A stretch of DNA of 64,000 nt, taken from positions 192,001-256,000 of IMG/VR virus record IMGVR_UViG_3300033066_000693. One strand, 5' to 3'. The position numbers were made by a program, and so were the translations under genes. Source of the stretch: a virus. Under the pieces are notes generated by a model that saw only the letters and a list, made by a program, of their open reading frames with translations, did not search any database and was not told the DNA's origin. Numbering within the stretch: the stretch's first letter is position 1; every line of letters starts with the position of its first letter. Of the stretch, positions 33,022 through 53,527 are shown piece by piece.

Positions 33022-33810
33022 TCACAGACTGCCGTGACCAACTTCAGCGGTGCCATTGTTATGAACATTAGAGTCTCGCATTTTACGAAGGTCCAAAGTA
33101 ATCGCCTTGGTTTCCTTGTACCGAGCGTCAATATCAGAAACTATCTTCTCTCGGACGCAAGATTCATAAGTCATCTCAACGAACTCTAGACCCCTAACTC
33201 CATTGAGTCTAGCAATGGCGTCAGACAGTCCATTACTGTTTCCAATAAGGTCAGACTGTTCAACGTCGCCTGTACAAACGATCTTTGACCCCTCTCCAAT
33301 ACGTGTCAAGATCATTCTCATCTGCTGCCTAGTGGAGTTCTGCATTTCGTCCGCAATGACATAAGAGTTCTTGAACGTACATCCTCGCATGTATGCGATA
33401 GGATAGATCATGATTTTCTTCTCTTCAATCAGTTCTTTGATTGCGTCATGGCTAAGGTAGTCTGAGACAACCTCATACAACGGCATGACTGCCCATCCCA
33501 TCTTAGCATCAAAGTTACCGGGCAAGAATCCTAGCTTCTCACCAGCTTCAACATAAGGTCTAGTAAAAATCACTCGCTCGTATCTACCCTTAAGCATTTC
33601 TTGAATGCCCCAACCAACGGCGCAGTGACTTTTTCCCGAGCCGGGGACTCCATACAAAAAGGTAACTTGATTTTCGGAAATGGCTCTCAGCGCCTTTTTC
33701 TGTCCTTCATTCTTAGCACTTACGGAAACAAGAAGTTTCGAATTCCCAGTTCCTTCGTGTAGAACAAACTCATTGCTACCTTTTCTGCTGGTCTTGGTTT
33801 TTCTTGCCAT
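33022..33810 (-). CDS. phoH: PhoH-like ATPase
   Basis: Walker A GVPGSGKSH; PhoH-family motif IAYMRGCTF (compare AFMRGRT); Walker B region VIADEMQN; GGAGA Shine-Dalgarno. Confidence 0.75.
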   Translation of the reverse strand: MARKTKTSRKGSNEFVLHEGTGNSKLLVSVSAKNEGQKKALRAISENQVTFLYGVPGSGKSHCAVGWGIQEMLKGRYERVIFTRPYVEAGEKLGFLPGNFDAKMGWAVMPLYEVVSDYLSHDAIKELIEEKKIMIYPIAYMRGCTFKNSYVIADEMQNSTRQQMRMILTRIGEGSKIVCTGDVEQSDLIGNSNGLSDAIARLNGVRGLEFVEMTYESCVREKIVSDIDARYKETKAITLDLRKMRDSNVHNNGTAEVGHGSL

Positions 33811-36413: not shown

Positions 36414-38552
36414 TTAATAAAGAGTCAACAAAGCTCTAACTCGGATATTGTCTCCAAGAGAAGCTGGAGTGAAGCGAAGATAAGTTGTATCATTGCCTTT
36501 ATCATCGGTTGTCCAGCTTACCCAGTTTGAACCGCCATCTGTAGATTTCTCCCAAGTACCGCTTCTAGTTGTTGAATCATCTGTAACTAACAAACTTCCG
36601 GAAACTGCGTCATACAATCTAATCTTCAATCTAGGAACAGTCCCGCCAAAGGCTGTAGCAAACCTCCACGCAAACTGCTTACTAGACAGACTAGAATTGC
36701 CAACAGACGGTTGATAGTGGCTATCGGTTGACAGATCTTCATAGATAACACCCAATGCCATTACCTGAGAAGGCACGCACGATTGTCCCATTATCTTGAA
36801 CTCAAGTTTTAGCTGACATGATGTTGCTGAACTAATGGAACTCATATCTCCTGACGCAGGCAGTACAGTCCAGCTACCGCTATTATCGCTTATGCCTGAA
36901 GTTCTAACTGATAGCCTAACTGGCTCTGTCATAACTCCAAGATTTTTTACACTTGCGCCACCTTGAATATCTTTTTGTGCAATATATGCTCTAACATAAG
37001 AAGCAACATTTGCTGTAGAAATTTCAGGAGTAATAACAACCTGATTCGTATTCGCTGTATATTCCCAATCACATGCTGTTGGAATGGCAAAAACAAAATT
37101 AGTTATAGCAGTAAGGCCTGTTTGGGCCATGTACAATATACCATTAGAGCGACCCAATAAAAAAACGCCCAAAGAATAGGAAGGATGAGGATAAACGTCA
37201 GAACTTGAAGTAACCTGAGGAGTCTGTTTATCATCCATCAAAAAGACTCTATCCCATTGTGACCCGTCACTTCGATATTGAGTACAATAACATCTTGAAG
37301 CTGTACTAATATAAAACTTATCTAGTATACTAGAATATACTAAATTATTCAAAGTAGCAGTAAGAGCAGAAGTTGTTGACGATCCCGGCGGAACCTCTAA
37401 ACAGTTATCGCCAGCCCAAGTAGTCGAGTTAGAAACAATTGTTGTTATATCCGCCGTTCTATACAAACGGGTTGTCGTGGTAAAATATCCGCATGGTATG
37501 CCAGATCCGCTTCCATGACTGGTGGTAGCAATTACAAAGTTGTTGTTCTGAGATGGAGTGCCAGTTAATGCGCCGTGCGAGCCTGATTTTAGAACAAATG
37601 CGTCGGTAGATTTTCCAGAGACGACAGTAAGAGCCGCTCGCATGTTATATTTGTACAAAATAGGATTAGCAACCGTATCTAGGACGTATAAATGCTGTGT
37701 GGTCCAGTCTGTCTTAATATAATCGCATCCAATGGGTGCAATATTTGTAGAAGTAGCCGCATCTCCAATCCAATAGTTTGTTCTTGCAACTTGATCTGCA
37801 TTGGTTGCCGCAGCAATAGACGTGCCACCGCCATTAAAGGCTTCATACTTTAATCCTTTAGATATAAATACTCCGCCGTTAGTAGATGTGGTTGCATTCG
37901 TAACAACTTGTACTGCTCGGAGTTCTTCTATCACATAGGTTCCGCTACTGATAGTAGCAGATTCCGTCAGCGTTAGGCTTGTATCGCTTCCGACAGCGGA
38001 TATCTCATACCACCTAGAAACCGAAGAAGGAGTTGTGGTTCCAAAACCTATTCTAGACCCCGGACATATTTTTGCAGTAGACCATGTAGTGCTAGAGCCA
38101 GTTACGGTCGTTCCGCTGCAAGAGGCAGTACCAGTGGTATACTTATCATATATCATCTGAAAACCTCTTACAACATATGTGCCTTGAGTGCCAGCAAATG
38201 GAAAAGCTACCGTTATAAATCCCTTCCAAGTAAATACTGATGTTGTTCTATTAAACTCATAAAGCTGGATTCTTCTAGTAGCAGCGGCGGCAGCTTGATC
38301 CGCAAAGAAAACCCAATCTATTGTACTAGACCAAGGGACGGTATCTAAGTGATAAGCTGGAACTGCTCCGCCTGTTTCTACTGGACGAGCAAATCCCATT
38401 TGTATTGGACTTACATATTTAGTATCTTCTGTAGATCCATTAGCCTGAAAAATCATAGAACCCAAGCCAAGCTTTGTGGAATCATACGACTCAACGCCAT
38501 AGACATAGCTGCTTTGAGCGCCGAATCTGTATTCATATGCTATCTTTGACAT
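36414..38552 (-). CDS. 712-aa Ser/Thr/Gly-rich structural protein (fibre or receptor-binding candidate)
   Basis: Long ORF; T/S-rich low-complexity stretches (TTTRLYRTADITTIVSNSTTW, GSGSGIP); adjacent to a collagen-like fibre gene. Confidence 0.5.
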   Translation of the reverse strand: MSKIAYEYRFGAQSSYVYGVESYDSTKLGLGSMIFQANGSTEDTKYVSPIQMGFARPVETGGAVPAYHLDTVPWSSTIDWVFFADQAAAAATRRIQLYEFNRTTSVFTWKGFITVAFPFAGTQGTYVVRGFQMIYDKYTTGTASCSGTTVTGSSTTWSTAKICPGSRIGFGTTTPSSVSRWYEISAVGSDTSLTLTESATISSGTYVIEELRAVQVVTNATTSTNGGVFISKGLKYEAFNGGGTSIAAATNADQVARTNYWIGDAATSTNIAPIGCDYIKTDWTTQHLYVLDTVANPILYKYNMRAALTVVSGKSTDAFVLKSGSHGALTGTPSQNNNFVIATTSHGSGSGIPCGYFTTTTRLYRTADITTIVSNSTTWAGDNCLEVPPGSSTTSALTATLNNLVYSSILDKFYISTASRCYCTQYRSDGSQWDRVFLMDDKQTPQVTSSSDVYPHPSYSLGVFLLGRSNGILYMAQTGLTAITNFVFAIPTACDWEYTANTNQVVITPEISTANVASYVRAYIAQKDIQGGASVKNLGVMTEPVRLSVRTSGISDNSGSWTVLPASGDMSSISSATSCQLKLEFKIMGQSCVPSQVMALGVIYEDLSTDSHYQPSVGNSSLSSKQFAWRFATAFGGTVPRLKIRLYDAVSGSLLVTDDSTTRSGTWEKSTDGGSNWVSWTTDDKGNDTTYLRFTPASLGDNIRVRALLTLY

Positions 38553-38554
38553 TA

Positions 38555-40030
38555 CTATCTCCTAAGAACCACTGTTACGTCTTGGCCTGCAATGGTAGAG
38601 CCAATCTGATCTACATCTATTGTCAGAATATCTCCTTCCGCAAGACTTGTTGTATCAAAACTTGTTTGAGTGCCAGTTGTACTGTTTGCTGCTATTTTTA
38701 TTCTGTTTGCTTGAGTAGAGTCCCAGATAGATGTTCCATTCTTATTGATATCCATGATTAAATCTGCACCAGTTGGACCTGTTTTAGCATAAGCAAAACA
38801 CTTAGTAATAGTACAATCATTGGCTATGATAATTGCGTTAGTTTTGTTTACTCCTGTAGTAATATTTTCTCCTACTGCAAGAACAAAAGTAGTAAACGAT
38901 GGAGAACTTGCCCCTGAATACCCACTTCGTCCAGAATAACCGCTAAAGCCTGAAGATCCTATGGTTCCTATGTATCCTGAGAAGCCTGAAGATCCACTAT
39001 AAGCACTGTATCCTGAAAAACCGCTTATTCCCGAGTAGGCAGAGAAACCCGATGGTCCACTGTATCCTGAGAAGCCGCTGTAAGCAGAGTAACCGCTTCT
39101 GCCGCTATAAGCAGAGTAACCACTAAAGCCTGACGTACCAGAGTAAGCGGAATATCCGCTGAAGCCCGATGGTCCGCTATAACCGCTGAATGCAGAGTAG
39201 CCGCTAAAACCACTTATACCGCTATAAGCAGAATAGCCGCTAAAGCCCGAAGGCCCACTATATCCTGAAAAACCGCTCGGTCCTGAATAGCCGCTGAAAC
39301 CGCTCTCTCCGTCAACGCCAATAATTCCGTCTGCGCCCTTATAACCGCTAAAGCCTGAAGGACCAGAGTAACCGCTAAAGCCGCTCGGTCCTGAATATCC
39401 TGAGAAGCCGGAGATTCCTTGCGTTCCAATGTAACCGCTAAAGCCAGAATAACCGCTGTATCCTGAGAAAGATGAATAGCCAGAAAAACCGCTATAAGCG
39501 GAATATCCGCTGAAGCCCGATATTCCGCTATATCCTGAAAAGCCGCTCGGTCCTGAGTAGCCGCTAAAGCCTGAAGGTCCGCTGTAGCCGCTGAAACCAC
39601 TTGGTCCTGAGTAGCCGCTGAAGCCTGAGATACCGCTATAAGCAGAGTAGCCGCTGTAGCCTGATACTCCGCTGCCAGAATAACCACTAAAACCGCTTAT
39701 GCCTGAGTAAGCCGAGTATCCTGAGAAACCACTCGGTCCTGAGTATCCACTAAAGCCAGACTGAGAAGAATAACCAGAATAGCCAGATAAACCTATATAA
39801 CCACTGTAGCCGGAAAAACCTTGCCCTGAATATCCTGAAAAGCCAGAAGCTCCGTCTCCGCCTCCTCCAAAAGAAATGGTTTTATTTTCCCATTTTCCAG
39901 TAACAGAATTATAAACTAGAACTTGACCATTAGACAGAGACGACAGTGTTACATCAGACTGTTCTCGAAGACCATCAGGAATAAAAAAGGCGGAAGACAA
40001 TAAAGATCTCCTTATTGGAGACTTTACCAT
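38555..40030 (-). CDS. Collagen-like (Gly-X-Ser)n fibre protein, 491 aa, with non-collagenous C-terminal domain
   Basis: About 300 aa of GFS/GYS/GPS/GIS triplets (...SGYSGPSGFSGYSAYSGISGFSGYS...) followed by a roughly 120-aa globular C-terminus. Confidence 0.8.
   Translation of the reverse strand: MVKSPIRRSLLSSAFFIPDGLREQSDVTLSSLSNGQVLVYNSVTGKWENKTISFGGGGDGASGFSGYSGQGFSGYSGYIGLSGYSGYSSQSGFSGYSGPSGFSGYSAYSGISGFSGYSGSGVSGYSGYSAYSGISGFSGYSGPSGFSGYSGPSGFSGYSGPSGFSGYSGISGFSGYSAYSGFSGYSSFSGYSGYSGFSGYIGTQGISGFSGYSGPSGFSGYSGPSGFSGYKGADGIIGVDGESGFSGYSGPSGFSGYSGPSGFSGYSAYSGISGFSGYSAFSGYSGPSGFSGYSAYSGTSGFSGYSAYSGRSGYSAYSGFSGYSGPSGFSAYSGISGFSGYSAYSGSSGFSGYIGTIGSSGFSGYSGRSGYSGASSPSFTTFVLAVGENITTGVNKTNAIIIANDCTITKCFAYAKTGPTGADLIMDINKNGTSIWDSTQANRIKIAANSTTGTQTSFDTTSLAEGDILTIDVDQIGSTIAGQDVTVVLRR
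38930..39845 (-). repeat. Collagen-like triplet repeat region (coding)
   Basis: Nucleotide-level repetition of ccgctgaagcc / gagtagccgct units encoding G-[FYPIT]-S. Confidence 0.8.
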
Positions 40031-40074: not shown

Positions 40075-40557
40075 CTAATTAGCTATGGATTCTATTGCGG
40101 CTACCACTACATCTGGATCAACAAAAGCTTGTTCGGTAAATACGTCCTGTTCCCAAAGTTCAAACTGCTGAGGCCGCAAAAAGACTCTATCTTTTAGCAA
40201 GTTGATGTTTTGCGCATAGCCGAAAATGTTTGGATCAGAACGACCAAACACAGCTACGCCTCTCTTGCCATGATAAGTGGCGAAATGATTGAAAAAATTG
40301 TCTACCGAAGCCCATGTTGCTGCCTCTGACAACAACTTGGCAAGATCCTTCAATTTTAGGCCTTGCTTGACCTCATCTGCCCCAATAGGGCCTTCCCCCG
40401 GAACGCCAACCTGAATGACACGATAGCCTTTAGACTGCAACTGCTTGGTTACTTCTTTCCACCAAGGATAGTTCTTTGGATTAACTTTGTCAGGGTCAGT
40501 GGGCTTTGCTTTTCTTAGCTTCTTAGAATAAGGACTGATGATTATTGTTTTCTTCAT
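40075..40557 (-). CDS. C-terminal (donor-binding) half of a GT9 heptosyltransferase-like glycosyltransferase, as a separate 160-aa ORF
   Basis: LKLKDLAKLLSEAATWASVDNFFNHFATYHGKRGVAVFGRSDPNIFGY matches the GT9 C-domain pattern (L.eL.all..a.l.ig.DSG..HlAaA.g.P.v.lFG.tdP); ATGA overlap with the upstream ORF, whose C-terminus is the GT9 N-domain. Confidence 0.5.
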   Translation of the reverse strand: MKKTIIISPYSKKLRKAKPTDPDKVNPKNYPWWKEVTKQLQSKGYRVIQVGVPGEGPIGADEVKQGLKLKDLAKLLSEAATWASVDNFFNHFATYHGKRGVAVFGRSDPNIFGYAQNINLLKDRVFLRPQQFELWEQDVFTEQAFVDPDVVVAAIESIAN

Positions 40558-41603
40558 AGTAGCATCTTTCGATAAGCGTCAACAAGTCTTCCCTTCCAAT
40601 TATGCTCAATCATGAAACGGTAAATGTTATGCTTGTCTTGGTCAGGGTCTATAAGCTTAGAATCTGCTATGCTGATAAGCTCAACTCCGTCTTCTCCCTC
40701 AAAGACTTCTGGATAACATACCCCAAGAACAATTGGCTGGTCCTTGTATTTCTCTTTCAGTTCTGGCAGCATCATCTTGAAGGCATAATGATCTCCCAAG
40801 CCGCAATCCAAGACTACAAGCTTGTCATGCATCGTCTGAATGCCATACTCTTCAAGTTTGCGATGGAATACCTTCTCGTCATGCTCCCACAAGAAGGATG
40901 ACTCATAAGAGCGGATACCCCCTCCCGGAGAACGAAGATGCCATATAACAGCCTTAGGGTCTACAATAAGCTTGAAGCCCGCCCTTCGCATTCCATAGGT
41001 AAACAGAGTCTCTTCTCTATGACCAACAGGAGAAAGTTCCATACAATAGCCATGCTTTGCCGCAGACTTGCGAAACAAAAAGCTGTTATTCAAATGGTCA
41101 ACTTCTCTTGCGCCTTCAAATCTAAACCATTGAACATTTGGTCTATTGAATATATGCTCTATCTTGTTAGACGCAAAATGAGAAAGATGAGTAACTTCAC
41201 CGGGAACAAGGATTAATCCGCTAACTGCTCCAACGTCGTCAGCTATGTTACTTACAAGGACTTCTAGAACATTTGATTCAGGAACATCATCGTCGTCTAC
41301 TCGCCATATCCATTCGGTTTTGGCTATCTCAATAGCTGCCTGATGATTATGGACTTGTCCTTTTCGTTGTCCGTAAATTACTTCGCAAGGTATACCCTTT
41401 GAATGGAACATGGCAAATAGGCTAGAGTAAAGAGGGTCCGGCCTCAAGTCTCTTTGCTCGCCATCGTCAAATATGATAACCCTTGCTGGCTTATAGGTTT
41501 GATTAGCGACCGCTGTAAGAGCAAGAGGTAGCGTTGTATGATACCTGTCTTTTGTAGATATCTCTACTGTTACTTCCACTCGTTTTGGTTTCTCATTCTC
41601 CAT
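40554..41603 (-). CDS. GT2 (GT-A fold) glycosyltransferase fused to a GT9 N-terminal domain
   Basis: N-terminal half ISTKDRYHTTLPLALTAVANQTYKPARVIIFDDGEQ (GT2 with DDG); C-terminal KLVVLDCGLGDHYAFKMMLPELKEKYKDQPIVLGV resembles the GT9 N-domain (kIlvirl.alGDvl.t.P.l.alk..yP.a.i). Confidence 0.55.
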   Translation of the reverse strand: MENEKPKRVEVTVEISTKDRYHTTLPLALTAVANQTYKPARVIIFDDGEQRDLRPDPLYSSLFAMFHSKGIPCEVIYGQRKGQVHNHQAAIEIAKTEWIWRVDDDDVPESNVLEVLVSNIADDVGAVSGLILVPGEVTHLSHFASNKIEHIFNRPNVQWFRFEGAREVDHLNNSFLFRKSAAKHGYCMELSPVGHREETLFTYGMRRAGFKLIVDPKAVIWHLRSPGGGIRSYESSFLWEHDEKVFHRKLEEYGIQTMHDKLVVLDCGLGDHYAFKMMLPELKEKYKDQPIVLGVCYPEVFEGEDGVELISIADSKLIDPDQDKHNIYRFMIEHNWKGRLVDAYRKMLL

Positions 41604-42312
41604 GCGTCATCTTTCTTGCTAGAGCATTAGCCCTAAACAGGCTTTCAAAAGTTCCTGCATCTGTCCACTCTCCAGAAACCATCTGGAAAGGCACCTCTCC
41701 TATCTGTAGATACTGATTGTTTACATCGGTAATTTCAAGCTCGCCTCTTGCTGAGGGTTTGAGTTTCTTTATGATGCTAAAAACTCGCCAATCGTAGATA
41801 TACAACCCAGTTACAACAAGATCAGAAACGAAAGCCTTTGGCTTTTCTACTATCGAGATAATCGTATCATTAGCAACTTGCGCAACTCCAAACCGTTCAG
41901 GAGTATTGCTCTTCTTCAAGAAAAGTTTCGCTCCCCATTTGAAATCAGAAACGTCAAACGTGTCTTCGAAGATATTGTCTCCGAGGATTACGGCAACAGA
42001 ATCTACCTTGCCTACAAAATCTTCTCCTAAGCTCAAAGCTTGAGCGATACCACCAGCCTCGTCTTGTATGCGATAGGAAATGCTTACTCCAAAATCTTTA
42101 CCGCTGCCAAGTAACTGAGCAATATGACCGCAATGCTCTATGCCAGAAACAATGAGTATCTCTCGTATACCCATCTTGATAAGAGTCTCAAGCGGATACA
42201 TGATCATTGGCTTGGAATACACAGGCAACAAGTGTTTGTTCGTGACCTTGCAGAGGGGATAAAGTCTTGAACCTGTACCACCCGCCAGTATAATGCCTTT
42301 TTTTACTGACAT
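41593..42312 (-). CDS. rmlA: Glucose-1-phosphate thymidylyltransferase (RmlA-like, short form)
   Basis: KGIILAGGTGSRLYPL...NKHLLPVYSKPMIMYPL...ILGDNIF matches the RmlA/RfbA N-terminal signature. Confidence 0.75.
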   Translation of the reverse strand: MSVKKGIILAGGTGSRLYPLCKVTNKHLLPVYSKPMIMYPLETLIKMGIREILIVSGIEHCGHIAQLLGSGKDFGVSISYRIQDEAGGIAQALSLGEDFVGKVDSVAVILGDNIFEDTFDVSDFKWGAKLFLKKSNTPERFGVAQVANDTIISIVEKPKAFVSDLVVTGLYIYDWRVFSIIKKLKPSARGELEITDVNNQYLQIGEVPFQMVSGEWTDAGTFESLFRANALARKMTHGE

Positions 42313-43160
42313 ATCTTCTCCAATTCTTTATATTTATCATACTTTCTTTCCAACCTATTTTCTCCAACATTACTGTATATCCATTGACATATTTTCAATA
42401 CTTGAAATCTTCCAGTATATCTCATCATATAATGATTAGCTTTTTTATTTTGACACCAGAGTTTGGTGGTTTCGATCCCAACGTACATCACAAGTCTTTT
42501 TTGGATTTCAAGTAGCAGTTCTTTAGTTCCAACAATTTGAAAACAATAGGAGTTTCTTTGCGGATAAATAAGAATACTTCCATCTCCTTCGAATACGCCT
42601 CTGATAAAAGCCCTATCTAAAAATTCTCCTTTTATACAATTAAGATATTCCTCGGCTCCGCTCTTCGTTGGTTTTATTCCGTACTCTATTAGCTTCGAAC
42701 GCAACACTGAAGAAGATATTTTGAGTAATTTCGCCTTGTATGTCTTATTTGTTTTCTTTAGATATGTACTAGAATTAAGAATTGGTCCTGAGTATCCAAA
42801 GAATTTTCTAATATACTCAAGAATAGATTGGTCTTTTATCGCTACTTTGCATCCAAAACAATTTTCATTCTTATGCACAAAACCGTCAGAAAGAAGCCAG
42901 CCTAAAATCCATGCTACATCTGTTGTTACATTATCTAGAGCATCTTCTCTTAAGGTATGAATTTGATTAGAAAGAAAACGATCTTTAGGCAATGACGCAA
43001 TCCCCAGCTTTTTCATTCTTTGAGATATAAACCACTGCGAAACTCCAAACTCTTTGGCTATAGATTTCTGCGATCTTTTCTCCTCAAAGTATTTTTTCCT
43101 GAGATCTAATTCAGAAAGCTCTATTTTCTTATTCTTTGGCATAAGCCATTTATCGACCAA
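42303..43160 (-). CDS. LAGLIDADG homing endonuclease (double-motif) with N-terminal helix-turn-helix, free-standing
   Basis: Motifs VAWILGWLLSDGFV and FIRGVFEGDGSI; HTH-like SIAKEFGVSQWFISQRMKKLGI; inserted between rmlA and the rmlD-like gene. The track start is TTG; the real start is more likely the ATG of MPKNKK 18 nt inside. Confidence 0.65.
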   Translation of the reverse strand: MVDKWLMPKNKKIELSELDLRKKYFEEKRSQKSIAKEFGVSQWFISQRMKKLGIASLPKDRFLSNQIHTLREDALDNVTTDVAWILGWLLSDGFVHKNENCFGCKVAIKDQSILEYIRKFFGYSGPILNSSTYLKKTNKTYKAKLLKISSSVLRSKLIEYGIKPTKSGAEEYLNCIKGEFLDRAFIRGVFEGDGSILIYPQRNSYCFQIVGTKELLLEIQKRLVMYVGIETTKLWCQNKKANHYMMRYTGRFQVLKICQWIYSNVGENRLERKYDKYKELEKICQ

Positions 43161-43239
43161 TACAGCAAATAACTTTAGTTTGTTACCTTAGTAAGAGGCA
43201 TGAGTCGGCTGCCAGTACCGCCAGCTAAAATGATTCCCT

Positions 43240-44100
43240 TCATGCAACCTCCAAGAGGCGTTCTGCTTCAACATACTTTCTTATGCAGGTATCGACAGCG
43301 GTAATCGCTGATCTCAACTGAATACCCTCGTCTTCGAGCTTTCTCGTAGAAAGAACGCAGTTAGACCGACGAACTTTCGTTATCGTGTCAAGTTCTTCTT
43401 CTGAAATGAGAGAGTATTTCAGTTTCTTTCCCGAAATCTCTTCATACATTTTGAGGATTTGCGAATGGAATATAGAGCCTTTGTTTACTACATTGTAAAT
43501 GCCAGAAACATCTTTCTCTATGAGAGTTTTTGCTACATAAAGAAGATCTGGAATGTATGTAATAGAGTTTGCAGATTCAACAATCTTGGAATAGCCTAAG
43601 AGCTTGGTCAACAAATTGCGAGGGTCTGGCTTATCTCCCAATGGCATTCGTATGCGAAGTTGAAGAGCATTCTGTCTGTTCAGGTATCGTTCAGAAACTA
43701 TCTTGGTCCAACTGTAATAACTACCGTCATAGTTTGGAGCGGTCTTTTCGGAATACCCTTCGCCATAATCGTCCCCTTGATACACGCAACCGCTTCCTAT
43801 ATGAACCATTTTCGCTTTATAAGCACGGCATGCTGTTTGAATATATGACGGAACCACAACATTCGAGAAAAACGTTGCCTGCCTATTTTCCTCGCTAGCT
43901 TCGCACCAATCTATATTAGGTCTTCCAGTCTTTCCTAAGCAGTTAATGACATGGGTTGGCCTGTAGTGATAGATTCGACTCATGATTTGGTTATAATCAG
44001 TAATGTACTCGGTATACAGACTTGTAGGATAGAATGTTTGAAAAAACTCGGCAAACTGCTTGCCAAGGTACCCTCCACCAATAACCATTATTGTATACAT
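43240..44100 (-). CDS. NAD(P)-dependent sugar-nucleotide reductase, RmlD-like (dTDP-4-keto-6-deoxyhexose reductase family)
   Basis: Rossmann MVIGGGYLG, catalytic YYSWTK (YxxxK), length 286 aa typical of RmlD; adjacent to rmlB. Confidence 0.55.
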   Translation of the reverse strand: MYTIMVIGGGYLGKQFAEFFQTFYPTSLYTEYITDYNQIMSRIYHYRPTHVINCLGKTGRPNIDWCEASEENRQATFFSNVVVPSYIQTACRAYKAKMVHIGSGCVYQGDDYGEGYSEKTAPNYDGSYYSWTKIVSERYLNRQNALQLRIRMPLGDKPDPRNLLTKLLGYSKIVESANSITYIPDLLYVAKTLIEKDVSGIYNVVNKGSIFHSQILKMYEEISGKKLKYSLISEEELDTITKVRRSNCVLSTRKLEDEGIQLRSAITAVDTCIRKYVEAERLLEVA

Positions 44101-44103
44101 AGC

Positions 44104-45066
44104 TTATTCTTTCAGCATATTACCCCACCATTCGTTATTGGAGAGGTACCATTCGATTGTCGCATCTAAACTAGTATCGAACCCGCTCTTAGGTTTCCAC
44201 CCAAGCTCATGAAGCTTGGTACAATCCAATGAATATCGCAAATCATGACCAAGCCTATCTCCAACAAACTTGATACTAGACTCATTCTTGCCCATCTTTT
44301 TGAGCAAACGTTTGGTAAGATCTATATTACTTACCTCATTACCTCCGCCTATGTTGTATACCTGACCTGCCACTCCATTCTCAATGACAAATGAAATAGC
44401 ATCGCAGTTGTCTTCAACATATATCCAATCTCTTACATTCTTTCCGCTTCCATAAACAGGAACTTGTTCATTTCTAGATAACTTGGCTATAAATAGAGGT
44501 ATGATCTTCTCTGGGAACTGATAAGGTCCAAAGTTGTTTGAAGATCTAGTTATGATTACTGGCTGCTTAAAAGTATGCATTGCTGAAAAACACAGCATCT
44601 CAGCAGCAGCCTTGGAAGCGCTATACGGAGAAGACGGACGAAGTATGTCCTCTTCTGTAGAAGACTTGTGATGAAACTCAAGAGATCCGTATACCTCGTC
44701 AGTAGATATTTGAACAAACAAGCTAGCATTCTTTTCTCTGGCAGCACCAAGCATAAGCGCAGTACCCAGAACATTTGTATGAAGAAACGGTAGCTCATTC
44801 TGGATAGAGCGATCTACATGACTCTCTGCTGCAAAGTTAACAACTATATCGCCTGAACGGATAACGTCCTTTGCCGTAAATCCGTCGCATATGTCCGCTC
44901 GAACAAACGTATAGTTTGGCAAAACATCCAACTCTCTCTTTGTTTCAAGGCTTGCAGCATAGGTCATTTTATCAATATTGACAACGCTATGCGTCCCTTT
45001 GGAAAGAATGCTTCTAATAAAGTTACTACCAATGAATCCTAATCCGCCTGTTACTACTATATTCAT
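44104..45066 (-). CDS. rmlB: dTDP-glucose 4,6-dehydratase (RmlB)
   Basis: IVVTGGLGFIGSNF, FAAESHVDRSI, STDEVYG, SPYSASKAAAE (YxxxK), RDWIYVEDN: canonical RmlB motifs in order. Confidence 0.85.
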   Translation of the reverse strand: MNIVVTGGLGFIGSNFIRSILSKGTHSVVNIDKMTYAASLETKRELDVLPNYTFVRADICDGFTAKDVIRSGDIVVNFAAESHVDRSIQNELPFLHTNVLGTALMLGAAREKNASLFVQISTDEVYGSLEFHHKSSTEEDILRPSSPYSASKAAAEMLCFSAMHTFKQPVIITRSSNNFGPYQFPEKIIPLFIAKLSRNEQVPVYGSGKNVRDWIYVEDNCDAISFVIENGVAGQVYNIGGGNEVSNIDLTKRLLKKMGKNESSIKFVGDRLGHDLRYSLDCTKLHELGWKPKSGFDTSLDATIEWYLSNNEWWGNMLKE

Positions 45067-48000
45067 GAGTTGTTCTTCTTATGAAAGCGATCAGAAATCT
45101 CAGGAGTCCTCTTGGACGCCATGTTTGAAGAGAACTTTACCGTATAGGTAATCTTCGAATCGCTGTTTTTCTTGAACTTGTATCCAGCCTTTGCGATTCT
45201 CACCCACATGTCCCAATCTTCAATAGAATCCAAAGAACTATCAAATCCTCCAACAGACAGACACTTAGCTTTATGAACTACGCTTGAGATGTATATAAAT
45301 GGACAACGACGCATAAACTCCAAGCCGGGATACTCCGGAGGATTTGGTATTCCGTCAGGATAAGCTATAGAACCGTCTGTGAATTCGTGCCTAACTTCTG
45401 AATAGACCAAATCAGCCTCTTGGAGAGCCTTTATTTGAGAAGATAGATGGTTTTCGTCCCAAACATCGTCGGAATCGCAATAAGCTATATATTCAAAGCC
45501 TCCGCTCTCTTTTATCTTGTCCAGAGCGGCGTTTCTGGCGGAGCTTACTCCTCCATTGGGTTTCTCAATAATCTTGATGCGAGAATCTTTTTTGCGCCCC
45601 AAAATGGTAGAAGCTCTATTCTCAAGGCTAGAGCCGTCGTCTACCAAGAACAGAACCCAATCCCTATATGTTTGGCTTACAATAGCCATTGTACTAGAAA
45701 CAAGCATGTCTTTATCATTGTAGTAAGGCATAACAATCGCTACTCTGCCGCTCTTAATCCACTTCTTCTGCAAAAACCTCTCTTGGTTCTCAACAATGAA
45801 CTTTGGATATGTTGAGTCTATGCTAACCAAGACTGGAACATGAGGAGGATTATCTCTACCGAGAGCTTCTTTACAGCTATCTATGTTCTGCTGAATCTTC
45901 TCGGCATTGGTGAACTCTGGTTTGTTAAGTTCTTGATGGGCATAAGATTCAAGCTTTTCTACAATCTTCTCGGCTCCGCCCATCCATCCAAAATGCCATC
46001 CTCCGTCTGCTATACGATCATTCTCTGTAATCGTTTGATATCTAAGGTCAGTTAGCCCATAGTTGACTTTCTTCAAGTTGCCGAATGTAGTTATGCGACT
46101 ATAAGCTCCCGGCCCCGGCTTGCTTATGCCAACGCTCATATTGAGATAGTAGTTGTACTGGTGCTGTTCAAAGTACATCCAGTCTTTCTGACCTTTGTAC
46201 TCTTGTATTTTTGAGCCTCTAGGAATCTCGTCAAGATCAGAAAGGATAATGATGTCGTTCTCTTGGCATTGCAGCAAAGAGTTGATCATAAAGTTGCGCT
46301 GATAATGCTCTCTAACCCAAGCATTATCTGTTTGAGGACACTCGTTTATGATGACATGGATAATCTTAGGCCAGAATCTTCTAAATCTTTCCTTGTTCTC
46401 ATTGAAGTAAAGGGGCTTTGGCTTACCAGAATGCGTAACATTCATTTCGCATAAAACGAAGTGATCTACGTAAGGGTCTAGCTCGTTCAATCTAACCTCA
46501 AGTATGTCTAGCTCATTGAAGAAACAAAAGCAATCATAAACCTTTGGCTTAGGCTTTGCTTTTTCCTTACGCACAAACTTGAAGTTCTTGGTATTTATGA
46601 GCTTTGGATCAAGCGGGATAAATATGTCATAAGCACCTGATGCAGGATTGAACATCCAGAAGCCCATTTGATGTTCTTGAATAGGAACGCAATCATAGCC
46701 TAGTTTTTCAATATACTCTCTCAGCATACTGAAGTTGTATTCCTTGTTTGGATGCAGAGTGTTATGGAACTCTGCAAAGATTGTCTTGCATCGCAATATG
46801 TCTCTAGGATCTGCTTTTAGCAGTATGTCATACTCAGAACCCTCGCAATCTATCTTAAGTACAACGTCATTATCTCCCGGGAAATACTCCAACGCCTGCG
46901 CAAGGCTGATAGCCTTGATTTTCGATCCATTTCCGTTTTCTGACAACTTGGCTACGGGACCGCCTCCTTCTAGAACAACCTCTGTCGTGCCGGGCGAAGA
47001 AACAGCCACATGAACAGGATGAACATTCGAGTATTGCTTCATGTTACTTACTAAGAGCTTATATGTTTCTTCAATTGGTTCAAACGAGACTATCTTTTTG
47101 GCTCCAAGCGTAGTACACAGATAAGAGAACATTCCTACATTGCCGCCAATGTCAAGAACGCTCTTGTTCTCTACGTCTTCTCTAAATACGCTATATGAGT
47201 TTAGGCCAATCACTTCATGAAAAAGGTTGCTCTCATACGCAAGAAATGTTTCTCGAATATCAATAGCTTTTCTAGGAACAAATATCAAACCTTTCTCTTC
47301 GAACTTCTTCAGATTGTCTCTTACAAATTTAGGATACGTTTCGTCAATTTGAACCGGGGAGAAAGACAAATCTCTTCCTAGAACGTCTTTGCCATTCTCT
47401 ATGGACTTAACTACGTTGTCGTCGTTGTTGATTCTGTCGTTATTGAACTCGTCATGCGCCCAGTTATTGATCTTGTCTTTGATATGGTCTTTGTCTCCTA
47501 AGAAGCTGAAGTGCCATCCTGCGTCTTCAAATACATGCTTGTAGCCATAGTCATTTTCCCCTCGGAAGTATTGAAGATTACGACCTTTCAGTTCTGCGTA
47601 TGGGAAGATTCTTACCTTATACCACTTGATGGGAGTTTCCAAATTGAGTCTGTAATAGAACAGTCTTGTTTGCAGACAACATATACCCATACTTATATTG
47701 TACTGCTTTACAACAGAAGCCCTAGGAATCTCGTCTACGTCAGAAAGAATGATGATATCATTGTCCTTGCAGTCCTTCAGCCCTCTTGCTATTTGATTGC
47801 GCTGATAAGGCTCTCGAACCCATGTATCCGTAGTAGGAGGAAACTCCTCAACGATTACATGCTCAATCTTGTGCAAGAACTTCTTGAACCGCTCTTTGTT
47901 CTGCTCAAAGTAAAGAGGCTTTGGCTTGCCCTGATGACTATATCTAGCCTCAGCCAGAACGAACTTGTCTACAACGCTATCTAGCTCGTTCAAGCGTATT

Positions 48001-51000
48001 TCTAGAACGTCTAGCTCATTGAAGAACATAAAACAGTCATATACTTTTGGCTTGCTAGGACTAACCCTATCTATAATTGTCAATCCATTGCAGTTATCAA
48101 ATATCTCCCTTATCCTCCATTCCTTATTTTCAGCCAAGAAATCATTAATTGCGTCAACAAGCCCCTTAGAATAGTTCTCTTTGAACTTCCAATCCCACTC
48201 TTCTCCGTCTTGGCTCTTATGCCCAAAAGTAACAGTATCATGCATTATGATGTACTTCTTTACTTTGGACGAGTGCATTCGTAGTTCAGCTAAAAGCTGA
48301 TCATACGAGTGCTTGGTATCAATGAATAGCAAGTCGGTAGGCTCTATCTCTATTTGCAGGCAATCTCTGGCTTCAAATGTGAAGTTGATTCCTTTGCGGC
48401 TTGCCTCGGTAGCCACCTTCTCCACAGCAGGACAATAGAACTTGTCATAAGATCTCATAATCTTAGGAAGTCCTGCAAACAAGCCCCATGTTGAGTTGCC
48501 AGTTCTAACCCCAAACTCTGTTATGTGTTCGCACTCTTGCGCATACTTCTTAAGAGTTGGAAGATGCTCATAGATGTCTCCTGATATCCCCTCATGATTA
48601 GTGCTTCTCTTCTCGTACTCTTCAAGGGTTGGGTCTTTATGCTTTTGCTTGATATAGAGAGCGTTCTTTGGCGATTTCTCCTCGTCATTGCTTGTATAAA
48701 TCTCTCTGAATGTTCCGCCTCCCTTGTGAACCATAGGGAACAAGAACAATCTCTCGTCATTCCCGGGAGACTTATCACTGTATGTGATATCATGAGGAAC
48801 TTCTACAAGAGCATAGCCTTCGTCTGCCGCTCGCTTGCAGTAATCAGCGTCTTCATGATAACCAATACCAAACTCCTCGTCTAGGTATCCTATCTTAGAG
48901 ATTACTTCTCGCTTGATCATAGCGCAGAAGAAAAGAAGATACTCGCTCTGTATATCGCTTCTCCATGACTTCCTAGCCCCTGTAATCCCAACTTTAGGAT
49001 TAGAAAAAGGAGCAGACAATACAGATATCCAAGATCTATCTAGTATCTCTGTGTCATTGTTGAGAAGTATAACATACTCGCCTTCCGCAAGCTTCATGCC
49101 TGCATTCGTTGGCTTAACGTATCCCAATGCCTTATCAAACCAGACAAGCTTGAAAGAAGACCCAAGACTCTCTACGTAGGCTTTCGTGCCATCGGTACAT
49201 CCGTTTGCGACAACGATAACCTCGACATTGCTCATGTCTGTATACTTGATAATGCTTTCAATACAAGGCCTAAGATGATCGTCTAGATGGTTGTATGTTG
49301 GAATGACAATGGAATACTTTGGCTTAATCTTCTTGCTAGGCTTTTCTGCCTCGACTCTCATGTTATAGCCCCAATGAGATGTGAACTGAGGCTCAAGCCT
49401 CTTGAGGTTCGTAAACCCAACGCCTCCAAGATGGTCAAACATGATTTCCTCATACCATCCAAATAGATGAGGATTGCTAACCTTTGGGTCATAGACAGTT
49501 GTACCGTATATGCAGTTGAGGAGAGTATACCTATCTATTTTGTTAGCTGCTTCAAAATGGCGACAGAGTTCTAGAATGTCTGGCAACTCAAGACATAGCT
49601 TTCCTCCGGGTGCCAAAACTCTAAACCATTCAGCAAGGATTGCTGACGCCTCATAGCAAGAAAAATGCTCAAAGACATGGATAGCAGATATCTCGTCAAT
49701 GCTATTGTCTGGGTATTCTAGCTTACGAGCGTCCATTTTTACGTCTGCGGCTGGGCTATACAAGTCAATATTGATGTACCCCGGCATAAGAACGTCGCCG
49801 CATCCTATGTTTAGCTTCTTTTTCTTATTGCCGTATCTATCAAGCAAGATAGCCTCGTTTCTTGCAACGATTTCCGTCCATTTTGGAACGCCATGCACAG
49901 TTTGGCTAGATTTGTGCCAAATAGGGAAATGAATCACATGGTCAGATGCGTCTCTAAGTCTATTATACTTTACGTCATTTGGAACTTGAACAACATCAAG
50001 ATTGGCTTTATGTAACTTCCAACAGTAGTCAATATCCTCGCCATATCCGGGATTAAAGATCTCGTCCAACAATCCAAACTTCTCAATGATGGTATCTTTC
50101 AACATTACGCAGAAAAACAACAAGAACTCGAAGCTTGTCTCGGCATGAAAGTTCTTAGCTGCGCCAGTTATTCCGGTCTTTGGATTATCTATGTAAGGCT
50201 TTTCCAACATTCTAAGCCATTCACTCTTGGGTTGTTCAAGAAGTATGTTGTCATTGTTTAATAGAACAACATACTCTCCCATAGAGATCTTGATTCCTTC
50301 ATTAGTTGCCTTTGTGTAACCAGCGGGGTCAGTCATCCAGAATAGCTTAAATGGATGACCCAATCCTCGAACATAGTCCTTAGTTCCGTCAGTACAGCCA
50401 TTAGCGACAACAATAACTTCAACCTCGTCAAGGTTAGTGTACTTGATAATGCTTTCGAGACATGGCTTGAGACAGTCATCCAAATGGTTATAAGTCGGGA
50501 TAATGATGGAATACTTTGGCTTTGGGTGCTTAGTAATCACAGATTTTCTATTGTGGTCAGTCATCTTGATGTCCTTAAACGTTATTTTGTCTTTGTGATA
50601 GATAGGAAACTCTCTATTGACATTAGGATTATGAAGTAGAGAGTCTGTATCAAAATCTAGATCATAGTGAATGTCAGTAGGGATTTGCTTTATCAGATAT
50701 CCGGCTTTAGAGAGACGAACGCAAAAATCAATGTCCTCTTCATACCCTAAGCCAAATCCCTCGTCCAATATTCCTATCTTATCGAAAATCGACCGTCGAA
50801 TCATGGCACAAAAGAAAACCATGTACGGTTGTCTGAATATCGTCTTACCATTGTTCCATGCTAAGCGAATATCTTTGTTTGGTCCAGTTATACCAGTCTT
50901 AGGATTTTCAATGAAAGGCTTCTCAAGCATATTAAGCCAATCGTTCTTCTTTTGAGGACAAAGAACAACGTCATTGTTGAGCAGTACAACAAACTCTCCC

Positions 51001-51251
51001 CTTGACGCTCGGATACCAGCGTTGGTGGGCTTGATATACCCCTCAGGATTTTTCATCCAAATCAGCTTAAATGTTGGACCAAGACTCTCTACAAAAGCTT
51101 TCGTGCCATCAGTACAGCCATTGGCAACGACAATGACCTCAACCTCGTCAAGGTTAGTGTACTTGATAATGCTTTCGAGACATGGCTTGAGACAGTCATC
51201 CAAATGGTTATAAGTCGGGATGACAATAGAATACTTTACGCTAGAACTCAT
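45063..51251 (-). CDS. 2062-aa multidomain glycosyltransferase/methyltransferase polyprotein
   Basis: Approximate domain map: GT2a 50577-51239, GT2b 49842-50516, class-I SAM MTase 49347-49817 (LNIGCGDVL...HVFEHF), GT2c 48672-49319, Methyltransf_24-like O-MTase 48072-48599 (EFGVRTGNSTWGLFAGLP...LLFIDTKHSY), GT17-like 47262-48050 (YDCFMFFNELDVLEIRLNELD...GKPKPLYF), FkbM-type MTase 46617-47234 (VLDIGGNVGMFS...KIDCEGSEYDIL), second GT17-like 45762-46550, GT2d 45066-45746 (VAIVMPYYN...LVDDGS...CDSDD). Confidence 0.7.
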   Translation of the reverse strand: MSSSVKYSIVIPTYNHLDDCLKPCLESIIKYTNLDEVEVIVVANGCTDGTKAFVESLGPTFKLIWMKNPEGYIKPTNAGIRASRGEFVVLLNNDVVLCPQKKNDWLNMLEKPFIENPKTGITGPNKDIRLAWNNGKTIFRQPYMVFFCAMIRRSIFDKIGILDEGFGLGYEEDIDFCVRLSKAGYLIKQIPTDIHYDLDFDTDSLLHNPNVNREFPIYHKDKITFKDIKMTDHNRKSVITKHPKPKYSIIIPTYNHLDDCLKPCLESIIKYTNLDEVEVIVVANGCTDGTKDYVRGLGHPFKLFWMTDPAGYTKATNEGIKISMGEYVVLLNNDNILLEQPKSEWLRMLEKPYIDNPKTGITGAAKNFHAETSFEFLLFFCVMLKDTIIEKFGLLDEIFNPGYGEDIDYCWKLHKANLDVVQVPNDVKYNRLRDASDHVIHFPIWHKSSQTVHGVPKWTEIVARNEAILLDRYGNKKKKLNIGCGDVLMPGYINIDLYSPAADVKMDARKLEYPDNSIDEISAIHVFEHFSCYEASAILAEWFRVLAPGGKLCLELPDILELCRHFEAANKIDRYTLLNCIYGTTVYDPKVSNPHLFGWYEEIMFDHLGGVGFTNLKRLEPQFTSHWGYNMRVEAEKPSKKIKPKYSIVIPTYNHLDDHLRPCIESIIKYTDMSNVEVIVVANGCTDGTKAYVESLGSSFKLVWFDKALGYVKPTNAGMKLAEGEYVILLNNDTEILDRSWISVLSAPFSNPKVGITGARKSWRSDIQSEYLLFFCAMIKREVISKIGYLDEEFGIGYHEDADYCKRAADEGYALVEVPHDITYSDKSPGNDERLFLFPMVHKGGGTFREIYTSNDEEKSPKNALYIKQKHKDPTLEEYEKRSTNHEGISGDIYEHLPTLKKYAQECEHITEFGVRTGNSTWGLFAGLPKIMRSYDKFYCPAVEKVATEASRKGINFTFEARDCLQIEIEPTDLLFIDTKHSYDQLLAELRMHSSKVKKYIIMHDTVTFGHKSQDGEEWDWKFKENYSKGLVDAINDFLAENKEWRIREIFDNCNGLTIIDRVSPSKPKVYDCFMFFNELDVLEIRLNELDSVVDKFVLAEARYSHQGKPKPLYFEQNKERFKKFLHKIEHVIVEEFPPTTDTWVREPYQRNQIARGLKDCKDNDIIILSDVDEIPRASVVKQYNISMGICCLQTRLFYYRLNLETPIKWYKVRIFPYAELKGRNLQYFRGENDYGYKHVFEDAGWHFSFLGDKDHIKDKINNWAHDEFNNDRINNDDNVVKSIENGKDVLGRDLSFSPVQIDETYPKFVRDNLKKFEEKGLIFVPRKAIDIRETFLAYESNLFHEVIGLNSYSVFREDVENKSVLDIGGNVGMFSYLCTTLGAKKIVSFEPIEETYKLLVSNMKQYSNVHPVHVAVSSPGTTEVVLEGGGPVAKLSENGNGSKIKAISLAQALEYFPGDNDVVLKIDCEGSEYDILLKADPRDILRCKTIFAEFHNTLHPNKEYNFSMLREYIEKLGYDCVPIQEHQMGFWMFNPASGAYDIFIPLDPKLINTKNFKFVRKEKAKPKPKVYDCFCFFNELDILEVRLNELDPYVDHFVLCEMNVTHSGKPKPLYFNENKERFRRFWPKIIHVIINECPQTDNAWVREHYQRNFMINSLLQCQENDIIILSDLDEIPRGSKIQEYKGQKDWMYFEQHQYNYYLNMSVGISKPGPGAYSRITTFGNLKKVNYGLTDLRYQTITENDRIADGGWHFGWMGGAEKIVEKLESYAHQELNKPEFTNAEKIQQNIDSCKEALGRDNPPHVPVLVSIDSTYPKFIVENQERFLQKKWIKSGRVAIVMPYYNDKDMLVSSTMAIVSQTYRDWVLFLVDDGSSLENRASTILGRKKDSRIKIIEKPNGGVSSARNAALDKIKESGGFEYIAYCDSDDVWDENHLSSQIKALQEADLVYSEVRHEFTDGSIAYPDGIPNPPEYPGLEFMRRCPFIYISSVVHKAKCLSVGGFDSSLDSIEDWDMWVRIAKAGYKFKKNSDSKITYTVKFSSNMASKRTPEISDRFHKKNNS
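50421..51240 (-). repeat. Intragenic duplication: about 100-nt near-identical segments at 50421-50520 and 51141-51240 (start of the GT2a and GT2b modules)
   Basis: tcaacctcgtcaaggttagtgtacttgataatgctttcgagacatggcttgagacagtcatccaaatggttataagtcggga occurs twice almost verbatim. Confidence 0.7.
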
Positions 51252-52915: not shown

Positions 52916-53527
52916 TTAAAATCTCCTAAGACTAGAATCTACAAACTTCAAAGCATTCTCATTTACTGGCAAGCCTACAAAATTTGCTATTCCTTGAATT
53001 GTTATCTCAGAATTATCTACTAATTGATCAAACTCTACAATTAACTTGGGGACATTAGCAATTGCAAGTTGCGCATTATGTACCTCAATAAGTTTTGCAT
53101 ACCGCTCTTCAGTATTAGGATCGTTTGCTCTAGCTCTCCAACTTTCCTTACTTTTTTCAAGAGGTCGCTGCGTGATAATAAGTTTTATATCAGGCAAATT
53201 CAAAAACTCATCAGCTAAAAATCCAATAAGATGGTTCTTGACTCCCCATATTATTCCTCTGCTCATTCGATCTTGAATGATTCTCCTAATCCTCAATCGT
53301 CCATCATTATTTGAATCAATAGGTAGAGTCCATGTAATCGGATCATTTTCATTAATTAGCTCTAAGGCTTCAGTTATAATTCGATCAACAAAAAATCCTT
53401 TAGCATTCCATTCTGGATCTGATTCAAATAAATCATCTCCCATATGAACACCTAAATTATGTAATATTCCAGCGATACAACTAGTTCCACTTCTTGGTAA
53501 GCCTAAAACTAAAACGCATGTTCCCAT
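52916..53527 (-). CDS. Sulfotransferase (Stf0/Sulfotransfer_3-like)
   Basis: N-terminal VLVLGLPRSGTSCIAGIL matches the PAPS 5'-phosphosulfate-binding loop (PRSGTT/PKSGTT); later IITQRPLEKSKES fits the 3'-phosphate-binding R-x(n)-S element; about 200 aa, as in small bacterial sulfotransferases. Confidence 0.5.
   Translation of the reverse strand: MGTCVLVLGLPRSGTSCIAGILHNLGVHMGDDLFESDPEWNAKGFFVDRIITEALELINENDPITWTLPIDSNNDGRLRIRRIIQDRMSRGIIWGVKNHLIGFLADEFLNLPDIKLIITQRPLEKSKESWRARANDPNTEERYAKLIEVHNAQLAIANVPKLIVEFDQLVDNSEITIQGIANFVGLPVNENALKFVDSSLRRF

Follow-up and report, generated by a model that had tools for sequence, protein, structure and literature searches.

Which sugar does a huge phage make when it carries the first genes of the rhamnose pathway and no recognisable gene for the epimerase RmlC, and how does a homing endonuclease gene (HEG) come to sit among those genes? 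Both questions are raised by a 64-kb stretch of viral DNA (IMGVR_UViG_3300033066_000693, positions 192,001-256,000), referred to here as the window, in which rmlA, rmlB and a gene for a putative reductase, called ER below, stand together with a LAGLIDADG HEG. A sequence-only reading had described these four open reading frames (ORFs), and the ORF list bears out their positions, all on the minus strand. We consider it probable that the two questions have a joint answer: a rhamnose route that ends in a single bifunctional enzyme and a homing cassette lodged in rmlA, both within a tightly packed minus-strand operon that serves virion or host glycan synthesis. The loci compared with the window come from viral, metagenome and genome collections and are cited by L number.

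The third enzyme of the sugar module

The ER gene (43240-44100, minus strand) encodes a 286-residue short-chain dehydrogenase/reductase (SDR) of the NRS/ER (UGER) type, a putative bifunctional nucleoside diphosphate (NDP)-4-keto-6-deoxyglucose 3,5-epimerase/4-reductase. In a phmmer search of Protein Data Bank (PDB) sequences, ER matched Arabidopsis NRS/ER, the "3,5-epimerase/4-reductase" of entry 4QQR, at 4.9e-41 (144 bits) and the Mimivirus uridine diphosphate (UDP)-L-rhamnose synthase L780 (7JID) at 1.7e-29 (106 bits), whereas the best true RmlD, 3SC6, reached 1e-9 and only 41 bits. Identity to characterised NRS/ER-type enzymes is about 40% or less. The rmlD equivalog TIGR01214 was the sole NCBIfam model matched by ER, at 47.2 bits against a cutoff of 224, and the same search returned nothing specific to D-fucose or D-quinovose synthesis. 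No PHROGs family matched the protein beyond a weak generic epimerase hit.

The catalytic residues point the same way. In the phmmer alignment, Cys105 (in GSGC) and Lys166 (in LLTK) of ER align with Cys108 and Lys175 of L780, which mutagenesis has confirmed as key catalytic residues (PMC9614988), and RmlD 3SC6 has a tyrosine at the position of ER Cys105. Across 41 database homologs of ER, C105, K166, Y129 and K133 are invariant, as are G8 and G10 of the glycine-rich dinucleotide motif, and S103 is nearly so. An AlphaFold2 model of ER (predicted local distance difference test score 94.7) placed 7JID and 4QQR at ranks 1-4 of a Foldseek search, with template modelling (TM) scores of 0.82-0.89 (0.88 for 7JID), followed by RmlD structures at about 0.81. 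Sequence nearness, the Cys/Lys pair for epimerisation, the SDR machinery and the fold are thus all those of NRS/ER enzymes, and on its sequence ER is a member of the bifunctional NDP-4-keto-6-deoxyglucose 3,5-epimerase/4-reductase family. The gene identities given by the sequence-only reading were broadly right, except that its label of RmlD-like reductase did not hold, the protein being nearer in sequence to the NRS/ER family.

The two partner enzymes are of a different type. RmlB (44104-45066, minus strand; 320 residues), a dTDP-glucose 4,6-dehydratase (dTDP, deoxythymidine diphosphate), scored 415 bits against TIGR01181, above the cutoff of 365, and its best PDB match was Bacillus anthracis RmlB (6BI4; 335 bits), compared with 204 bits for Mimivirus R141. 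Its Tyr205 aligns with Tyr208 of 1R66, the tyrosine that in prokaryotic enzymes stacks on thymine (PMC9741107). RmlA (41593-42312, minus strand), a putative short-form glucose-1-phosphate thymidylyltransferase with a PF00483 match at 1.9e-53, scored 234 bits against TIGR01207, below the cutoff of 360, because at 239 residues it is a short form without the C-terminal ~50 residues of the model; from end to end it matched the likewise short RmlA of B. anthracis (3HL3), at 275 bits. Judged by these matches, RmlA and RmlB are bacterial in type, and with the NRS/ER-type enzyme they form a hybrid three-gene module.

In NRS/ER and L780, 3,5-epimerisation and 4-reduction are both carried out in one RmlD-like domain (PMC9614988; pathway overview in PMC9741107), and either UDP- or dTDP-4-keto-6-deoxyglucose can serve L780 as substrate (PMC9614988). 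By analogy with these homologs, from which the chemistry of ER is drawn, RmlA would make dTDP-glucose and possibly UDP-glucose as well, and RmlB would dehydrate it to NDP-4-keto-6-deoxy-D-glucose. The single ER enzyme would then carry out the 3,5-epimerisation, with Cys105 and Lys166 as the acid/base pair, as well as the NADPH-dependent 4-reduction (Ser103, Tyr129 and Lys133), giving NDP-beta-L-rhamnose with no need of RmlC. Two bacterial enzymes are thus probably replaced by one of the plant and giant-virus type, and the product is likely dTDP- or UDP-L-rhamnose rather than a 6-deoxy-D-hexose.

A bifunctional ER explains the RmlC gap without a D-sugar. The gap itself was confirmed: a Pfam scan found no dTDP_sugar_isom or cupin match in the non-embedded ORFs of at least 60 residues across the 64-kb window, leaving aside two unscanned ORFs, a tail-fibre-like one (36417-38561) and a Gly/Ser/Tyr-repeat protein (38558-40030). 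The sequence-only reading had taken the lack of RmlC to mean that a 6-deoxy-D-hexose is made, and this was not supported, as ER proved to be an NRS/ER family member with the epimerisation Cys and Lys, an option that the reading had left out of account. Neither of the outcomes that it had named as refuting it came about, with no rmlC in the window and ER not clustering with true RmlD enzymes, and still the D-sugar has gained no support.

The same three genes recur elsewhere. The order rmlB-ER-rmlA, with no RmlC family listed nearby, is found in a glycosylation cluster of a Nanoarchaeota metagenome-assembled genome (MAG; L021), on a 170-kb phage-like contig (L022), on a contig of ~505 kb (L013) and in a close relative of the window (L010/L011). 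The database holds 1225 relatives of ER at E<=1e-5, of which the named ones are mostly from DPANN archaea and bacteria of the candidate phyla radiation (CPR), and some are labelled "3,5-epimerase/4-reductase" by the Joint Genome Institute (JGI). Deposited phages gave almost nothing: tblastn of ER against 50,697 such records returned no match at E<=1e-10, and blastn of the region against deposited phages gave one trivial hit only. As locus searches with single proteins gave one distant locus for ER and none for RmlA, loci were retrieved with alignments instead.

A 2019 survey found the rml and udp (Uger) pathways to be mutually exclusive, with Uger found only in eukaryotes and Mimivirus (bioRxiv 10.1101/854612). 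Against that range, the mixed route of huge phages, DPANN archaea and CPR bacteria appears to be under-recognised, although its chemistry is not new. Textbooks and a dedicated survey hold the one-enzyme route to be eukaryotic or giant-viral and the RmlC plus RmlD route to be prokaryotic and phage-borne, whereas here RmlA and RmlB are mixed with an enzyme of the NRS/ER type. Annotation pipelines name such enzymes "RmlD", with the result that the pathway seems broken and wrong predictions of exotic sugars may follow. For producing dTDP-L-rhamnose from dTDP-glucose in two steps, ER also offers itself as a compact candidate.

Several points weigh against the rhamnose reading. The structural gap between L780 or NRS/ER and RmlD is modest (TM 0.88 versus 0.81), and with so small a margin the sequence scores and catalytic residues have to carry the family argument. 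The sequence does not tell L-rhamnose from 6-deoxy-L-talose, nor a single from a double epimerisation. Finally, a protein identical to ER is on record from contigs the longest of which measures 257,887 bp, and the RmlC scan covered 64 kb, so an rmlC may lie elsewhere in the genome, perhaps ~258 kb in size, or in the host.

Three other products or routes were weighed. At low probability, ER could be an NRS/ER relative that makes another 6-deoxy-L-hexose, such as 6-deoxy-L-talose, or that performs one epimerisation like Megavirus Mg535: SDRs with altered epimerase scope do exist, Mg535 among them (PMC9614988), and identity to NRS/ER is limited. Set against this, the active-site motifs are conserved in full, the two catalytic residues included, a standard RmlB supplies the canonical substrate, and the adjoining giant glycosyltransferase (45063-51251) also has, by Pfam, a weak CmcI/rhamnosyl-O-methyltransferase-like stretch. 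Slightly less probable is that ER is an RmlD-like reductase only, with the epimerase coming in trans from an rmlC located at another place in the phage genome or in the host. Many hosts do have rmlC, and the length of DNA scanned leaves room for one; however, the RmlC-less three-gene module recurs in several phage lineages and in the Nanoarchaeota MAG, and ER keeps the epimerisation residues while falling far under the RmlD cutoff. Less probable again is the proposal of the sequence-only reading, a plain 4-ketoreductase acting on dTDP-4-keto-6-deoxy-D-glucose to give dTDP-D-quinovose or dTDP-D-fucose. The RmlC-less window and the divergence of ER from canonical RmlD would suit it, but the best homologs of ER are experimentally bifunctional epimerase/reductases (PMC9614988, PMC9741107), the ER family shows no variation at the epimerisation Cys and Lys, and no NCBIfam model specific to D-fucose or D-quinovose was matched.

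The endonuclease gene and the rmlA stub

The free-standing HEG (42303-43142, minus strand) encodes 279 residues from the ATG at 43142, which is also the JGI gene call and is likelier than an alternative TTG start at 43160 that would give 285 residues. The protein has a LAGLIDADG_3 domain (PF14528, 3e-7), an N-terminal Sigma70_r4-like helix-turn-helix and a match to phrog_4645 "endonuclease" (5e-32). In its two LAGLIDADG motifs, LLSDG and VFEGDGS, the residues D86-G87 and E185-G186-D187-G188, with the catalytic acidic ones among them, are invariant in 36 HEG homologs. The HEG and rmlA share 10 nt (42303-42312), where the stop of the former overlaps the start of the latter, as the sequence-only reading had noted.

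Comparison with HEG-free relatives, which that reading had suggested, gave the breakpoints of the insertion. The relative L010/L011 is ~85-89% identical to the window in nucleotides (81% in ER and 90-95% in the other genes at the amino acid level); it has no HEG, and its ER stop overlaps the rmlA start (ATGA). In a blastn alignment with L010, window positions 45200 to 43178 correspond to L010 705-2726 and positions 42250 to 40085 to L010 2714-4879, the first block extending 66 nt into L010 rmlA. The uninterrupted 5' end of rmlA in L010 reads ...CTTACCAAGGTAACGAAC|AAGCATTTGTTGCC..., and the insertion comes after codon 22, within the conserved ...TKVTN|KHLLP.... The inserted cassette is 940 nt long (42238-43177, minus strand), with a right boundary that is ambiguous within 42238-42250, and consists of a left linker, the HEG ORF and, in recoded form, a substitute for the 5' end of rmlA.

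The original 5' end of rmlA is still present upstream of the HEG. This stub (43175-43243, minus strand) begins with an ATG that overlaps the ER stop (ATGA), runs through 22 native rmlA codons, MKGIILAGGTGSRLMPLTKVTN (43243-43178), and ends in TAA. It agrees with the working 5' end of rmlA in L010 at 61/66 nt (92%), all five differences being synonymous, and tblastn with an RmlA N-terminus matched it at 43240-43178 (8e-7). The replacement end that the cassette supplies on the other side, MSVKKGIILAGGTGSRLYPLCKVTN (42238-42312, minus strand), has a GGAG ribosome-binding site that lies within the 3' end of the HEG, and its 25 codons stand for rmlA codons 1-22. Its peptide is near-identical to that of the stub, whereas the two share 62% nucleotide identity and differ by 16 synonymous and 2 non-synonymous codons. 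From KHLLP, codon 26 onward, rmlA is native again, with 94% amino acid identity to L010. With a replacement 5' end and its own ribosome-binding site, full-length RmlA would still be made and no splicing is required.

The LAGLIDADG gene is therefore a mobile insertion, as had been proposed, since relatives without it exist (L010/L011 and L022). Its site is another matter: it had been placed exactly between rmlA and the reductase gene, and it lies inside the ancestral rmlA 5' end. In the population of the window itself, the HEG was seen in 8/8 places shown (of 11 contigs). Promoter and terminator counts around the HEG equal the shuffled expectation (10 versus 9.7 and 3 versus 2.5, respectively) and are thus uninformative.

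A clade of endonucleases beside rmlA

Searching viral, metagenome and genome collections with an HEG alignment gave 58 distinct HEG loci. In every one of the 41 distinct HEGs that had at least 35% identity and for which downstream sequence was present (41/41), rmlA lies directly downstream; among more distant LAGLIDADG relatives, 0/13 adjoin rmlA. The genes upstream vary (ER, rmlB, Toprim and others). Carriers include DPANN archaea (Iainarchaeum, AR10), Nealsonbacteria, Planctomycetia, Omnitrophota, a gammaproteobacterial MAG and huge phage contigs. The linkage of rmlA to these HEGs across domains yields a testable target prediction for a new meganuclease specificity.

The closest homolog, at ~66-67% amino acid identity, is on contigs of ~505 kb (L013) and has the same layout: rmlB, ER, a stub (MKGVILAGGTGSRLFPITKVTN|...), the HEG and rmlA (MSVKKG...PLCKVTNKHLLP). 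The junction follows the same codon, 22, and the left ends of the two cassettes are homologous from the first base past it (0/1000 shuffles reach the score). The replacement ends of the two share a MSVKKG...PLCKVTN signature. Their stubs differ by 13 synonymous and 3 non-synonymous codons, mostly synonymous changes that show the stubs diverging while still coding, which fits a recipient's own 5' end becoming the stub at each homing event. In L013, the stop of the stub ORF overlaps the HEG ATG (ATGCTAA), which suggests translational coupling.

Further stubs were found in L028/29, L041, L052, L037 and L073, all broken within codons ~16-23. In two of them, L037:1995-2915 and L073:149-1042, the native stub of about 18-21 codons continues in frame into the HEG, which would there be translated from the old rmlA start codon. 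Decayed HEG fragments in L051, L056, L058, L066 and L088 are signs of the gain, decay and loss through which such genes usually cycle. Moreover, the exact motif TKVTNKHLLP occurs in 0/30 HEG-linked and 20/66 HEG-free distinct rmlA N-termini (Fisher p = 2.6e-4, phylogeny ignored), and its absence from HEG-linked rmlA is what target-site immunity would predict.

From the clustering of breakpoints at codons ~16-24 and the avoidance of TKVTNKHLLP in HEG-linked copies, we infer both HEG activity and its cleavage site. The HEG would cut HEG-less rmlA alleles near codons 17-24. Repair would copy the cassette, for which the recipient's own rmlA 5' end and ER would form the left homology arm and the body of rmlA the right one. 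The result would be intron-like homing without an intron, in which the original 22 codons stay upstream as a dead stub. The T-to-C change in the motif, together with the many synonymous changes, would guard the HEG-linked copy against re-cleavage and against deletion by recombination between repeats, and in some lineages the start codon of the stub would drive HEG translation. An HEG could in this manner enter the most conserved part of a gene of an essential pathway with neither intron nor intein, by supplying a recoded substitute for the part displaced.

Some observations sit less easily with homing. No HEG-minus allele was seen within the population among the 8 places shown. The divergence between the window and L013 HEGs (66% amino acid identity) is similar to that of the flanking genes (58-71%), so recent transfer and long co-residence with homing inside each lineage are equally likely. 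Between lineages the stub breakpoints differ by up to ~7 codons, so that some insertions may be independent illegitimate events and not precise homing, and the motif statistic takes no account of phylogeny.

That the HEG is an ordinary free-standing intergenic one, and the 66-nt stub a product of chance or of tandem duplication, is very improbable. The HEG has its own ORF and sits between two genes, and free-standing phage HEGs are usually intergenic (PMC2988022). However, the stub is 92% identical to the HEG-free native 5' end and begins at the ancestral ATGA overlap, at least six other lineages show an equivalent stub next to a homologous HEG, with an in-frame fusion in two of these, and the breakpoints all fall within one stretch of ~7 codons. 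A group I intron or intein carrying the HEG and removed from RNA or protein is close to implausible: LAGLIDADG enzymes are typically intron- or intein-encoded, and the stub and downstream exon would be in frame if exactly 940 nt were removed, but the downstream rmlA has its own ribosome-binding site, its own ATG and a complete N-terminus, which make splicing redundant, an Rfam search at the insertion gave no intron or other RNA match at E<=1, and an intein or in-frame fusion in the window is excluded by the stub, HEG and rmlA lying in three different frames.

Two HEG-linked rmlA genes carry small inserts near the same site. In L048 (3855-3890), rmlA is broken right after the ...VTN codon by a 33-nt insert with an 11-bp hairpin and an in-frame stop; in L047 (3860-3935), two hairpin inserts of ~30 nt with in-frame stops follow N22 and K23-Q24. 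Both genes are otherwise intact. T4 gene 60/mobA is an arrangement of an HEG plus a bypass element. In L048, a ribosome hop from an AAC (Asn) take-off codon to an AAU (Asn) landing codon would restore ...VTN-KHLLP; such matched codons in the style of gene 60 fit L048 and do not cleanly fit the two inserts of L047, and the idea is speculative. The inserts might alternatively be RNA-excised elements or fresh pseudogenes. An archaeal bulge-helix-bulge intron was considered for the L048 insert and rejected, as the 4-bp central helix could not be fitted on inspection and folding predicts just a plain 11-bp hairpin. A bolder account can be offered tentatively and at rather low probability. It would have a self-contained homing cassette moving among archaea, bacteria and phages, in which the recoded N-terminus replaces splicing, the stub serves as homology arm and HEG launch pad, and the L047/L048 inserts are skipped or excised, making a second case of the mobA/gene 60 type.

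Two other loci bear on the same stretch of rmlA. An HEG-free viral contig (L091:1464-2187) has ER followed by an rmlA with a cassette-like ...LCRVTNKHLLP (Cys for Thr), and represents either loss of the HEG with the replacement end kept or the allele type that gave rise to the cassette 5' end. In the population of the window, L008:4060-5972 tracks the window through the HEG and rmlA codons 1-27 and then passes into unrelated DNA of higher GC content that encodes a protein resembling an ATP-dependent ligase. The break (...KVTNKH|VNKE...) is two codons beyond the predicted HEG site and may reflect either a genuine rearrangement at a break hotspot or a chimera produced by assembly; L008 was excluded from the evidence.

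Neighbouring genes and known systems

The minus-strand operon runs from a giant glycosyltransferase/methyltransferase through rmlB, ER, the rmlA stub with the HEG, and rmlA to a GT2 glycosyltransferase and a GT9-like protein, and neighbouring genes overlap. The giant protein (2062 residues) has four GT2 and two GT17 domains by Pfam, in addition to FkbM-type and class-I methyltransferases; its orthologs, of 2046 to >2990 residues, lie upstream of the rhamnose module in L002, L013 and L022. It resembles the multidomain glycosylation enzymes of giant viruses and is the probable user of NDP-rhamnose. The GT2 gene (40554-41603, minus strand; PF00535, 2.9e-14), the start of which overlaps the rmlA stop, is syntenic in L010, L013 and L022, and the small GT9-like protein (40075-40557, minus strand) matches PF01075 at 1.4e-6.

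Three large repeat proteins flank the sugar genes (38555-40030, 53537-57187 and 59192-63793, all on the minus strand). One has GFSGYSG-type repeats and in two others collagen triple-helix repeats are numerous (7 and 15 stretches matched); of the latter, one has a phage cement-like C-terminus and the other a PA14 domain. All three are candidates for glycosylated virion fibres. A sulfotransferase-like protein is encoded at 52916-53527 (minus strand). The collagen-like proteins, the giant multidomain enzyme and the sulfotransferases together suggest self-glycosylation in the manner of giant viruses, here in a phage.

Elsewhere in the window, likewise on the minus strand, are a GT4 glycosyltransferase (4207-5304), a phage tail tube protein (Phage_tube_2; 21077-22150), an N6/N4 DNA methylase (32145-33008) and PhoH (33022-33810). 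Most of the very large ORFs in the window (900-1400 residues) have no Pfam match at all. A second, unrelated HEG (27220-28029, minus strand; LAGLIDADG_2, 4e-20) occupies the lowest-GC stretch of its part of the window, and it has an 11-nt stop/start overlap with the gene downstream, which encodes a volactin-like actin homolog (26157-27230, minus strand; PF25216, 2e-57). No convincing remnant of the actin gene 5' end was found upstream of this HEG. The volactin family is named for a haloarchaeal protein, and such an actin is unusual in a huge phage.

Among known enzymes, ER is closest to Arabidopsis NRS/ER (UER1; 4QQR) and L780 (7JID). It shares with them a single RmlD-fold SDR domain of about 280-300 residues, the Cys/Lys pair for epimerisation and the Ser/Tyr/Lys reductase triad, and like them it would take the place of RmlC plus RmlD. 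Unlike them, it is encoded in huge phages and in DPANN and CPR genomes and stands beside bacterial RmlA and RmlB with no UDP-glucose dehydratase. With the bacterial and archaeal RmlABCD pathway to dTDP-L-rhamnose, the module has in common an orthodox RmlB, a probably orthodox RmlA (short, like that of B. anthracis) and an operon linked to glycosyltransferases; it differs in having no RmlC and in a last enzyme that fails the RmlD equivalog model.

The HEG resembles T4 SegF, SegG and MobE, free-standing phage HEGs with intronless homing, in being a seemingly promoter-less gene in an operon beside its presumed target, present in some relatives and absent from others (PMC2988022). Aeh1 mobE in nrdA and T4 mobA in gene 39/60 are gene-splitting insertions (PMC2988022), whereas the cassette described here does not leave its target as two working pieces; by means of a recoded duplicate of 22 codons, it leaves one intact gene and a dead stub. 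The nearest architectural parallel is found in fungal mitochondria, where LAGLIDADG insertions form in-frame fusions and partial duplications of the host gene (PMC7902536). As in those cases, the HEG lies in a coding sequence next to a partial duplicate of the host gene, and it is fused in frame in L037 and L073. The fungal insertions replace or duplicate the 3' end of the gene or lie within introns; the cassette found in these phage and prokaryote genomes concerns the 5' end, to which it gives another start codon and ribosome-binding site, and involves no intron. Sethuraman et al. (2009) are said to have described a fungal rps3 LAGLIDADG case. The phage HEGs named above are GIY-YIG or HNH enzymes, in contrast to the LAGLIDADG enzyme found here, whose clade spans archaea, bacteria and phages.

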